Shown: one piece after another, positions 1 to 2,272 of the stretch
How the letters are laid out: every line of letters begins with the position of its first letter
How positions within the stretch are numbered: the first letter of the stretch is position 1
Origin: an uncultured Candidatus Rokubacteria bacterium
GTDB lineage: Bacteria; Methylomirabilota; Methylomirabilia; Rokubacteriales; CSP1-6
DNA length: 64,000 nt
Direction of reading: 5' to 3'
Assembly: GCA_963771355.1 (NCBI GenBank)
Contig: CAVYTA010000006.1
Span: forward strand, 896,001-960,000
The notes under the pieces: model-generated
The model's input: only the letters and a program-made list of their open reading frames with translations
What the model was told of the DNA's origin: nothing
The model's database searches: none
Translations under genes and position numbers: made by a program

Positions 1-480
1 TCCTGGCTCTTCTATAGTGCCCGCTCCGTGCTGAACGTGTTTCGCGCGATTGACACCCTCGTCTACGCGCTCTTCTTCGTGGCAGCGGTGGGACTGGGGC
101 CCTTTCCCGGTGTCCTCGCGGTGGTGGCCTATACGGCCACCGTGCTGGCCAAGCTCTATTCGGAAGCGATCGAGGCCATAGACCGGGGACCGGTGGAGGC
201 GGTGGAAGCGTCCGGGGCCACGCGCCTCCAAGTCCTTCGCTGGGGAGTGCTGCCTCAGCTCGTGCCGCAGTTCCTGTCGTTCACGCTCTACCGCTTCGAG
301 ACGAACATCCGGGCGGCGGCAATCCTGGGTTTCGTGGGGGCGGGGGGCATCGGCTTCTACATCCAGACCTATCTACGCATGCTCAACTATCCGGCCGCCT
401 CCACGGTGCTGCTTGTGCTGATCGTCCTCGTCATGGCGGTGGACTTCACGTCTTCACGATTGCGCGCACGTCTCGTCTAG
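1..480 (+). CDS. phnE: Phosphonate/phosphite ABC transporter permease, 5'-truncated by window edge
   Basis: Open from base 1. EAA-loop region (LYSEAIEAID..PVEAVEASGA), YRFETNIRAAAILGFVGAGGIG typical of PhnE, hydrophobic helices. Confidence 0.88.
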   Translation, partial: SWLFYSARSVLNVFRAIDTLVYALFFVAAVGLGPFPGVLAVVAYTATVLAKLYSEAIEAIDRGPVEAVEASGATRLQVLRWGVLPQLVPQFLSFTLYRFETNIRAAAILGFVGAGGIGFYIQTYLRMLNYPAASTVLLVLIVLVMAVDFTSSRLRARLV

Positions 481-518
481 CAAAACAAAAGGCTCCAGGG
501 GGTTGCCCCCCTGGAGCC
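481..518 (-). terminator. Intrinsic terminator of the repeat-protein gene (may also act on phnE)
   Basis: Perfect 12-bp stem GGCTCCAGGGGG (491-502) / CCCCCTGGAGCC (507-518), GCAA loop on the minus strand, followed by TTTTGTTTTG on minus. Lies 25 nt after the stop at 544. Confidence 0.85.
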
Positions 519-543
519 CGGTGGATCAGGTTAATTCAGCGAC

Positions 544-1967
544 TTACTTGATCAGGTCCATGGCGGCCCGGGCCTTCTGGGACGCCAGGCTAGAATTACC
601 GGCCTTGCACGCCGCCTCGGCCTCACGAACCAGCGAGGTGGCACGGGAGAAGTCGGCGCGAGGAGCGTTGCCGTCCTGCCCGCGCGGCGCGTTGACATCC
701 TGCGTCCGGGGCGCGTTGACATCCTGCGTCCGCGGCGCGTTCACGTCCTGCGTCCGGGGCGCGTTGACATCCTGCGTCCGGGGCGCATTGACATCCTGCG
801 TCCGCGGCGCGTTCACGTCCTGCGTCCGGGGCGCGTTGACATCCTGCGTCCGCGGCGCGTTGACATCCTGCGTCCGCGGCGCGTTGACATCCTGCGTCCG
901 CGGCGCGTTCACATCCTGGGTGCGAGGAGCCTGCACGCCCTGGCTACGCGGGGCGTTCACGTCCTGGGTCCGGGGCGCGTTCACGTCCTGGGTCCGAGGA
1001 GCCTGCACGCCCTGGCTGCGGGGCGCGTTCACATCCTGGGTCCGGGGCGCGTTCACATCCTGGGTCCGGGGCGCGTTCACATCCTGGGTCCGGGGCGCGT
1101 TCACATCCTGGGTCCGGGGCGCGTTCACATCCTGGGTCCGGGGCGCGTTCACATCCTGGGTCCGAGGAGCCTGCACGCCCTGGCTGCGGGGCGCGTTCAC
1201 ATCCTGGGTCCGGGGCGCGTTCACATCCTGGGTCCGGGGCGCGTTCACATCCTGGGTCCGGGGCGCGTTCACATCCTGGGTCCGAGGAGCCTGCACGCCC
1301 TGGCTGCGGGGCGCGTTCACATCCTGGGTCCGGGGCGCGTTCACATCCTGGGTCCGGGGCGCGTTCACATCCTGGGTCCGGGGCGCGTTCACGTCCTGGC
1401 GTCCGGGGCGCGTTCACATCCTGGGTCCGGGGCGCGTTCACGTCCTGGGTCCGGGGCGCGTTCACATCCTGGCGTCCGGGGCGCGTTCACATCCTGGGTC
1501 CGGGGCGCGTTCACATCCTGGGTCCGGGGCGCGTTCACATCCTGGGTCCGGGGCGCGTTCACGTCCTGGGTCCGGGGCGCGTTGACATCCTGCGTCCGGG
1601 GCGCATTCACATCCTGGGTACGAGGAGCCTGCACGCCCTGGCTACGCGGCGCGTTCACATCCTGGGTCCGGGGCGCGTTCACGTCCTGCGTCCGCGCACC
1701 CGCCAGCGAACGGGGCGCCTGCACTTCCTGGGGCCCCTGAGCCCGCGGGGCGTTGACATCTTGCGTCCGCGGCGCGTTGACATCCTGCGTCCGGGCGCCG
1801 GCCAGCGACCGAGGCGCATTGACATCTTGCGTGCGCGCCTGACGCTGCTCGATCATCGACTTCGCCTGGGCCACTTCGGGCGGGCAGCTGGTCTGCGCCG
1901 AGCTGACCGACGCCGACAGCGACGCCATGAACACCACACTGGTCACCGTCGCCAAAACCTTCTTCAT
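544..1967 (-). CDS. Secreted tandem-octapeptide repeat protein (TQDVNAPR)n, 473 aa after correcting two +1 insertions (about 1399 and 1472); function unknown
   Basis: GAAAGGA RBS before ATG 1967. Sec signal MKKVLATVTSVVFMASLSASVSSA|Q. ORF pieces 1389..1967, 944..1465 and 544..1392 join into one frame: 1424-2=1422 nt. Unique helical C-terminal tail, stop codon and terminator. Confidence 0.85.
658..1832 (-). repeat. 24-bp coding tandem repeat: 40x TQDVNAPR, 5x SQGVQAPR, 1x GQDGNAPR, 1x AQGPQEVQAPR, 2x SLAGAR
   Basis: Direct reading. Plus-strand consensus GGGGCGCGTTCACATCCTGGGTCC, units contiguous without spacers. Confidence 0.95.
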
Positions 1968-2086
1968 GAGTTCCGTCCTTTCAAACTTGGTTAACTGCCA
2001 CCAACCTGCTTACACCGCCGCCGCTTCGAATCATTGGTCAGAGGCGATCCGCCGCTTGTCCGGCCCCAACCTCGCAAAGGAGACAA

Positions 2087-2102
2087 TGCAGATGCGGTGC
2101 CA
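2087..2102 (-). promoter_or_regulatory. Putative sigma-54 (-24/-12) promoter of the repeat-protein gene
   Basis: Minus strand TGGCACCGCATCTGCA matches TGGCAC-N5-TTGCW with exact GG-N10-GC spacing and points at ATG 1967. Confidence 0.65.
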
Positions 2103-2143: not shown

Positions 2144-2272
2144 CCGCCGGCCTGAGTCCTACGCCCCCTAAGCCGAGGGGCGTTCTGCCCGACCATCCCG
2201 CAGGCCCCCATTGCCAATCTGCCGCGGAGCTGGGGCGACGCTGCGCTCCTCCTGACTCGTGAATCCGGATAC

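Follow-up and report, generated by a model that had tools for sequence, protein, structure and literature searches.

A two-cysteine repeat-loop protein of uncultured Rokubacteria, its predicted split three-helix cap and its sigma-54 promoter

The locus and the repeat-loop gene

A stretch of 64,000 nucleotides (nt), here called the window, was analysed from an uncultured Candidatus Rokubacteria bacterium (assembly GCA_963771355.1, contig CAVYTA010000006.1, positions 896,001 to 960,000). Near its start, at 544..1967 on the minus strand, lies a gene for a predicted exported protein in which a long array of short repeats separates two small unique ends. Sequence comparison and structure prediction suggest that both ends form one small helical bundle, probably closed by a disulfide, that holds the array as a neutral disordered loop. 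The gene is preceded by a sigma-54 promoter with paired upstream activator sites, and its product may be an inducible protective polymer of the cell envelope.

The gene, like all features given for it below, is read from the minus strand, with its ATG at 1967 and its stop at 544-546, and it has 473 codons when two extra bases (see below) are skipped. Residues 1-24 (1896..1967) form a predicted Sec signal peptide that ends in VSSA and is followed by a Cys at +4 without a lipobox; A24 is kept in at least 90% of 58 homologues. The N-cap (1833..1895) has about 21 unique mature residues and holds helix 1 and C28 (codon 1884-1886), in TSCPPEV. The repeat array (658..1832) covers about 391 residues, is predicted to be disordered, and contains 47 [NQ]APR motifs, mainly as TQDVNAPR. 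The C-cap (547..657), with 37 unique residues, holds helices 2 and 3 and C453 (codon 607-609), in EAACKAG. C28 and C453 are the sole cysteines of the mature protein. The original prediction, made from the letters of the window, had described a loop of about 390 residues between unique ends of 21 and 37 residues, with one of only two cysteines in each, and this architecture stands; it had mentioned neither the two frameshifts, nor the sigma-54 promoter and enhancer, nor the parent fold of the caps.

The array is regular at the DNA level: its 45 anchor intervals measure 24 nt (40 intervals), 25 nt (two), 42 nt (two) and 33 nt (one), and Tandem Repeats Finder returned a period of 24, 42.9 copies and a score of 996. 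A sequence resembling a Shine-Dalgarno site, GAAAGGA, is found at 1976..1982, and comparable purine tracts lie 5' of homologues. An intrinsic-terminator-like hairpin of 13 pairs (10 G-C) with a T tail occupies 480..519; with one such hairpin found and 1.5 expected by chance it is not significant alone, and most homologous genes likewise have hairpins 3' of them. The metatranscriptome RNA contig X17 covers 1800-2044, including the 5' part of the gene, with zero differing letters, although its depth cannot rank genes by expression. A plus-strand open reading frame at 503-1585 (360 residues, with TSCVRGAL repeats) is a shadow frame of the array and shows no sign of being a gene.

The two extra bases

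The interval 544-1967 spans 1424 nt and more than one frame. The first frame as written ends at 1389, after 192 residues, because two 25-nt units, at 1463..1487 and 1390..1414, each carry one extra base and produce a +1 frameshift. The layout proposed in the original prediction was therefore right and its single open frame was not, since the numbering to C453 and to 473 residues needs both extra bases to be skipped. Both 25-nt units share one 7-mer, which is a hybrid of the two Thr-Gln codon variants found in the rest of the array.

The two insertions are most likely an assembly error, and four lines of comparison argue for this. All 52 tblastn matches from four same-genus relatives at more than 60% identity, which extend over 17 neighbouring genes, lay in a single frame. 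The +1 unit pattern had no match among metagenome contigs, against 15 stretches with the in-frame pattern, 14 of which show no out-of-frame spacing, in a set that may lack the records nearest to this genome. The same-genus genome G006 has an open copy of the gene with 471 residues. Finally, other few-contig assemblies also break inside the array, at different places.

Distribution and cysteines of the family

A search with the first 164 residues of the protein returned 563 proteins, and all those with a taxon name belong to Methylomirabilota or Rokubacteria. With a profile of the C-cap, the gene was found in 130 of 158 genomes of this bacterial family, in none of 24 genomes from four other families of the order, and as weak matches in six genomes of two other families of the class. 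The counts within the family are not independent, because the family is one lineage. Some genomes carry up to seven copies; paralogues (L032, L038, L108, G204) are sometimes only 3-4 kb apart, and several of them keep a sigma-54 site without the paired enhancer. The long open frames in G204 and G229 are not fusions: each contains a normal family member preceded by upstream sequence. No match to the family turned up in collections of phages and plasmids, and an Rfam scan gave nothing close to a gathering score. The motifs QDVQAPR, DVNAPR, QDIQAPR and EAACKAG were not found in a full-text literature search, which did not extend to supplements, and title-level listings of the Rokubacteria literature held nothing on such a protein.

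Of 224 proteins examined, 194 have both caps, 26 have no recognised C-cap (most of these are truncated) and four have no recognised N-cap Cys. Exactly two mature cysteines occur in 192 of the 194 complete homologues and in 70 of 73 two-cap representatives at 50% identity, and both are invariant in alignment A4, which holds 36 homologues at 29-57% identity. Conservation of the cysteines, on which the original prediction had made its disulfide depend, is thus borne out.

Array length ranges from zero to more than 40 units, although some short forms may be products of assembly collapse, and natural repeat-free or repeat-poor members exist (P0295, P0358, P0357 and P0365), with unrelated linkers. 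In four other two-Cys members (P0320, P0355, P0363 and P0367) the loop is a low-complexity tract rich in Q, P and G in place of the QAPR array. A two-Cys cap protein from another family of the class (L082, G099:C128, 1501-2247, minus strand) has a GQNEVSGAGRSTMP-like repeat, which suggests an independent or diverged expansion of the loop. Braun's lipoprotein is tied to peptidoglycan through a C-terminal Lys; the last residue (codon 547-549 in this gene) is Lys in 82 and Arg in 24 of 128 C-cap representatives, and a C-terminal Lys is also frequent (71 of 120) in the parent family described below.

The cap fold and its parent family

In an AlphaFold2 model of a short homologue, 96% identical, three helices have a pLDDT of 83-88, with helix 1 at residues 30-42, while the loop has a pLDDT of about 40 and there are zero strands. 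The model of the repeat-free member P0295 has the same three helices. The N- and C-cap helices of the former model together align to generic three-helix bundles, and LanD (PDB 9c8w) was matched with Z 6.8 and a root-mean-square deviation (rmsd) of 3.0 over 58 of 60 residues; a further LanD match had Z 7.1 and rmsd 2.9 over 59 aligned residues, and both were tied with unrelated bundles. The proposal that the caps form a small helical bundle closing a disordered loop is supported by these models and by the invariant cysteines.

Direct searches for a known family gave little. Foldseek found no match at E 0.001 or better; Pfam, run on the 36 divergent members, gave nothing beyond nine weak matches, each in one member; and a PDB sequence search with alignment A4 gave one weak coiled-coil match only. 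A scan of NCBIfam at E 1e-120 is uninformative for proteins this short. Of these checks, Pfam and Foldseek had been proposed with the original prediction. Most weak matches outside the family were exported proteins of 80 residues with a CP opening helix 1 and LHKAGxH at the junction of helices 2 and 3, here called the Cys-His-His family. HHalign of A4 against A5 gave a probability of 97.1 and E 6e-11 over 81 columns; with signal peptides removed the probability was 94-96%, and the score of about 40 compares with maxima of 15-19 for shuffled columns and 7-10 for reversed ones. Precomputed matches to Pfam PF27144 (automatic name PA14_33160) are present on seven of the 120 relatives listed. The statement that the protein belongs to no described family was thus too strong, although the literature yielded nothing under PA14_33160 and the family is, as far as searches show, uncharacterised.

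In the alignment, TSCPPEV of the repeat-loop protein falls on FTCPALI of the parent, so that a Cys-Pro opens helix 1 after the signal peptide in both, and ACKAG falls on LHKAG, which places C453 at the position of the first His. The junction motif HxxGxH is found in 120 of 120 and 52 of 53 parent sequences, the single miss being a false match; the repeat-loop protein does not have it and reads CKAGNS there, the second His being lost. By these profile alignments, the caps correspond to a small exported three-helix protein of the Cys-His-His type that has been split, with the array in place of the loop between helices 1 and 2. An unrooted tree of 17 parent-type and 26 two-Cys sequences has one branch with 99/99 support that parts both groups, and a direction from the His form to the Cys form is suggested by the wider range of the former.

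The Cys-His-His cluster is probably a metal site. An up-down-up bundle would place C28 and C453 at one pole, with the array at the opposite pole; with C453 at the first His position, the cluster has likely been converted into a pair of cysteines. Genes for VKOR and DsbA-like proteins are present in the genome, and the strongest DsbA-like match contains one TGA.

Two repeat-free Cys-His-His genes also occur in this genome, at C6:1042172-1042423 and C7:426709-426957. For one of them the flanking genes are uvrC-like and leuS-like, as in 29-35 of 55 related loci; the other is the last gene of a cluster that also includes two sigma-54-like sites, a gene with an OmpA domain and a two-component system. 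A further small exported protein with a CP helix and several His (G000:C4:15839-16144) is weakly Cys-His-His-like (E 0.005). The parent neighbourhood is of housekeeping type (uvrB/uvrC-like, leuS-like, lptE-like and holA-like genes, named by inspection) and gives no functional hint; a sigma-54-like site lies within 450 nt in only three of 53 parent-family loci.

Chemistry and constraint of the repeat units

Within the 40 in-frame 24-nt units, seven DNA versions give one and the same octapeptide, and synonymous variants occur at every codon position, which shows that the repeat is constrained as protein. Units were then called without presupposing a motif in the 73 two-cap representatives. An exact tandem unit was found in 33 of them, giving 26 distinct types, one of which is an off-frame reading. 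Net charge is zero in all 26, and aromatics, His and Cys occur in none. P[RK] is present in 22, [VIL][QN][AS]P[RK] in 17, and Ser or Thr in 14. The periods of the distinct units are 8 to 11 and multiples, and by protein count the dominant period is 8 in 126 proteins, 9 in 39, 10 in 18 and 11 in one. Neutral charge is kept more strictly than the exact motif, which favours a physical role; the motif itself is kept well enough to leave room for recognition or cleavage.

The rule of one Asp and one Arg per unit, part of the original prediction, is broken by the five SQGV units of the array, and the mature chain as a whole, with 41 Asp and 5 Glu against 52 Arg and 4 Lys, has a net charge of about +10. 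Several of the roles then proposed can be graded from these counts. Glycosylation is not general as a function, with Ser or Thr in only about half of the distinct units, and cation binding is unlikely for units with zero net charge and neither His nor Cys. Aromatic stickers of the condensate type are absent (none in 55 unit types). Among the proposed roles, that of a periplasmic polymer fits best.

Promoter, enhancer and candidate regulators

A sigma-54 (-24/-12) promoter, TGGCAC-N5-CTGCA, lies at 2086..2102 (minus strand), 135 nt 5' of the ATG. The pattern precedes the gene in 24 of 25 copies; among the copies of a second set of loci it was missed in several. Further upstream, at 2179..2223 (minus strand), two GGCAGAWYGCC-like activator (enhancer) sites, GGCAGATTGGC and GGCAGAACGCC, are 34 nt apart. 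Across the family such sites are 34-35 nt apart and about 112 or 122 nt before the promoter, a difference of one helical turn, and in 26 of 30 loci the promoter follows the enhancer at a distance of 109-124 nt. An enhancer matrix trained without the site of this gene gave a composite score of 55 here, 17 at the next best place in the genome and a maximum of 11.9 in shuffled sequence. Of 73 family genomes, 35 have the paired enhancer in exactly one copy; it is absent from all of 48 others and from a reversed control. It leads into the repeat-loop gene in 29 of the 30 loci fetched from these 35, the 30th being cut by a contig end. Membership of a PEP-CTERM/PrsR regulon was considered and rejected: PEP-CTERM proteins are described with a C-terminal PEP motif and a transmembrane tail, and their enhancer motif 1 ends in TTTACA, in the part of the source available (PMC1569441), whereas the repeat-loop protein ends in AAMDLIK and its GGCAGAWYGCC-like enhancer is unlike motif 1. 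PrsR itself is present in the genome.

The genome contains 24 strong matches to sigma-54 activators, and two of these are reciprocal best matches in four enhancer-bearing genomes, with no clear orthologue in two gene-less genomes. The better candidate (C6:1605197 region) is paired with a membrane kinase that has five hydrophobic segments, lacks a periplasmic domain and weakly matches 6TM_PilS (E 0.013). Matches to the kinase have at least 58% identity in 66 of 72 genomes of the family and at most 44% in 48 others. No enhancer half-site was found upstream of its operon, and kinase and repeat gene share a chromosomal block in one of nine inspected kinase loci. In that locus, from a small genome (L347, G032:C20:10219-12900), kinase and activator are flanked by secA and smc, and the repeat gene is about 10 kb away. 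The PilS-like kinase and its activator may be regarded as the best candidate regulator, as a lead and not an assignment. The activator frame in this genome (G000:C6:1603800-1606130; L069:1800-4130) reads without a stop into an enoyl-CoA hydratase domain, for 777 residues in all, and four inspected relatives have a separate regulator of 463-479 residues; the longer frame is a fusion or the result of a lost stop.

Genomic neighbourhood

The repeat gene lies between HIT/phnCE and a divergent block of an M16 pair, rhomboid, tlyA, nadK, recN and secA (names partly by inspection). The M16 block is present in all nine inspected gene-less loci of sister families (eight of eight in f4 and one of one in f3), with HIT directly before M16 in seven of them, and in four members of the bacterial family (L041, L049, L118 and L120) M16 is not beside the gene. 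The gene is, by these comparisons, inserted beside a pre-existing M16 block with its own promoter and terminator. A membrane-anchored HtrA-like protease lies downstream and co-directional in many genera (L040, L041, L043, L044, L047, L048 and others), whereas in this genome its closest match is at a different place (C7:512266, 55% identity). The S1 Asp of trypsin sits six residues before the catalytic Ser; the HtrA-like neighbour has no Asp there in the five copies in which the motif was found. Both the M16 pair and the HtrA-like protease were considered as dedicated partners and rejected, as neither is constant beside the gene and sister families that lack the gene still have the M16 block.

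Proposed mechanism and alternatives

We propose that a soluble protein is exported by Sec to the periplasm, where VKOR and DsbA-like proteins would oxidise C28 and C453. The three-helix bundle would then hold both ends of the disordered loop and bury the chain termini, and the buried ends could shield the loop from proteases that recognise ends. A neutral, aromatic-free and Pro-broken loop would stay soluble and might act as a hydrated zwitterionic spacer or as a holdase. The PilS-like intramembrane kinase and its activator (G000 C6:1605197 region) would switch the gene on. To the whole of this proposal, an intact, bundle-closed neutral loop that works as a sigma-54-induced envelope-protective polymer, we give somewhat less than an even chance.

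Several points weigh against it. The gene copy in this assembly is frameshifted as written. A [VIL]Q[AS]PR core is found in 45 of 55 unit types, far beyond the needs of a filler, which suggests specific recognition or cleavage. For helical bundles, Z values below about 13 may reflect merely a common arrangement. The co-occurrence of kinase and gene concerns one clade and thus a single event. Lastly, an activator in a degP operon (C6:1755723) is also a reciprocal best match in all four family genomes, although it is the weaker candidate, since 20 of 21 genomes of the gene-less family f4 also have a match to its C-terminal part.

The first alternative is a multi-core (RiPP-like) peptide precursor cut after each Arg, which would release dozens of lineage-specific signal or effector peptides of 8-10 residues and leave the cap as a disulfide-linked two-chain remnant. 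Arg or Lys is present in all 55 distinct units and P[RK] in 51, 748 of 811 octamers have G, T or S directly after the Arg, and the conserved core is C-terminal in the unit behind a variable N-terminal pad, with dominant units that differ by lineage. A precursor would call for a protease or modifying enzyme of its own, and none dedicated to it was found: the M16 block is of housekeeping type, the HtrA-like neighbour has no S1 Asp and is not adjacent in this genome, and the enhancer was found only before the repeat-loop gene. Repeat-free members also persist. This explanation is unlikely, though it deserves appreciable weight.

The second alternative is a multivalent linker or scaffold, whose dozens of copies of a short linear motif would bind and gather an abundant partner in the periplasm or cell wall, much as EPYC1 clusters Rubisco. 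It would suit a disordered loop whose copy number varies freely and in which core motif and acid-to-Arg spacing are kept ([DE].[QN].[PGA][RK] in 49 of 55 unit types). A co-located or co-regulated partner gene was not found in the inspected loci or the enhancer census, aromatics are absent, and some members swap the motif for other Q/P/G-rich linkers or have none. By analogy this scaffold is conceivable, but we consider it rather improbable.

A third explanation starts from the division of the bundle between two chain ends. Helix 1 of one chain could pair with helices 2 and 3 of another in a domain-swapped polymer with inter-chain disulfides, the repeats setting the mesh. The effective concentration across a disordered linker falls with length to the power of -1.46 to about -1.7 in the part of the source available (10.1101/577536), and by extrapolation closure across 390 residues would be some 80-150 times weaker than across 20, although this carries the scaling past the 120 residues tested there. 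Many members have short loops, with a median linker of 65 residues in the representatives (a value that short-read collapse may bias). Such swapping is improbable. Equally so is the bolder form in which split bundle and tunable neutral linker make a self-assembling, covalent zwitterionic gel of the periplasm, with its own membrane-sensing two-component switch and a mesh given by copy number; if true, such a gel would amount to a helical version of donor-strand complementation in pilins, and to a protein that takes the place of periplasmic glucans.

The array might instead be a beta-structured fibre, as a gp5-like triple-stranded beta-helix or a beta-solenoid. The gathering score of PF22178, the family of T4 gp5, was passed by P0003 (68.7 against 30.9 bits) and by four of 12 full-length homologues, as a sum over repeats in long octamer arrays. 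Like gp5, the array can have a period-8 repeat with Val first, its register V-N-A-P-R-T-Q-D resembling VxGxxxxx, and conserved Q, V and A alternate. The gp5 triple beta-helix motif is given as VxGxxxxx, with a conserved VxG, in the part of the source available (PMC4576200); the array has Ala at the Gly position in 791 of 811 octamers, followed by Pro. Periods of 9, 10 and 11 are frequent, a single protein can mix them, and three homologues made mainly of 9-mers give no gp5 match. The array matches no PDB sequence at E up to 10, AlphaFold2 predicts no strands, and a rod would part caps that belong to one bundle. PF22178 membership is therefore read as spurious, as is the share of Peptidase_M23 in an Atlas cluster, a repeat-summation artefact of the same kind; we regard a beta fibre as very improbable.

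An exported nitrogen store, also among the roles first proposed, or a pseudogene in this strain can be given next to no credence: 1.63 N per residue (99.6th percentile of a sample of 1090 proteins) is just 18% above the average of 1.38 and an exported location would be poor for a store, and, against the two frameshifts as assembled, promoter, both caps and terminator are undamaged, the last 89 residues share 99% identity with G003, and the +1 unit is absent from the metagenomes that hold the in-frame form.

The bundle-closed polymer would be of interest for several reasons. The gene is near-core in the best-sampled family of the Rokubacteria, which are uncultured soil bacteria, and its regulatory element is kept across the family and serves this gene only. 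The caps offer a traceable route to a new type of protein, from a probable metal-binding bundle through the change of His to Cys and a likely clasp to the growth of a loop from 0 to about 390 residues, with its charge kept strictly neutral. If the product is a protective polymer, it would be a natural cyclised, zwitterionic disordered protein, relevant to envelope physiology and to protein design. The enhancer sequence and the candidate kinase open the inducing signal to a direct test in a heterologous host.

Comparison with known systems

The closest relatives by descent are proteins of the Cys-His-His family (PF27144), which have in common with the repeat-loop protein a signal peptide, a CP at the start of helix 1, a KAxxLxxEAxxx(H/C)KAG motif and a third helix. 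The repeat-loop protein differs in having Cys for the first His, no second His, and up to about 390 repeat residues for a short loop. LanD of Methylorubrum extorquens is described as a three-helix bundle with a disulfide between helices 1 and 3 and a metal site of Glu70, Glu73 and Glu75, in the part of the source available (PMC11551332). The second Cys of the repeat-loop protein, in contrast, ends helix 2, and the Glu triad is absent; only one Glu of the C-cap is conserved at 90%.

Exported products under dedicated two-component control include ZraP/Spy/CpxP and, through PilS/PilR, pilA, and for zraP and pilA the activators are of the sigma-54 type. All of these proteins are folded and have no repeat loop, and no homology to the repeat-loop protein was detected.

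Asr of E. coli is strongly basic and has no folded disulfide cap. The repeat-loop protein resembles Asr in being small, exported and disordered (the last two by prediction) and in its candidate two-component control; it differs in a neutral loop cyclised by a bundle and in dependence on sigma-54, and no sequence match between the two was seen. In the parts of the sources available, Asr is described as a stress-induced chaperone of the periplasm that is intrinsically disordered and supports the integrity of the outer membrane (PMC10746267), and a reference title places it under control of the phoBR two-component system (PMC3396692). By analogy, Asr would be the closest functional precedent for the repeat-loop protein, with a different charge, cap and sigma factor.

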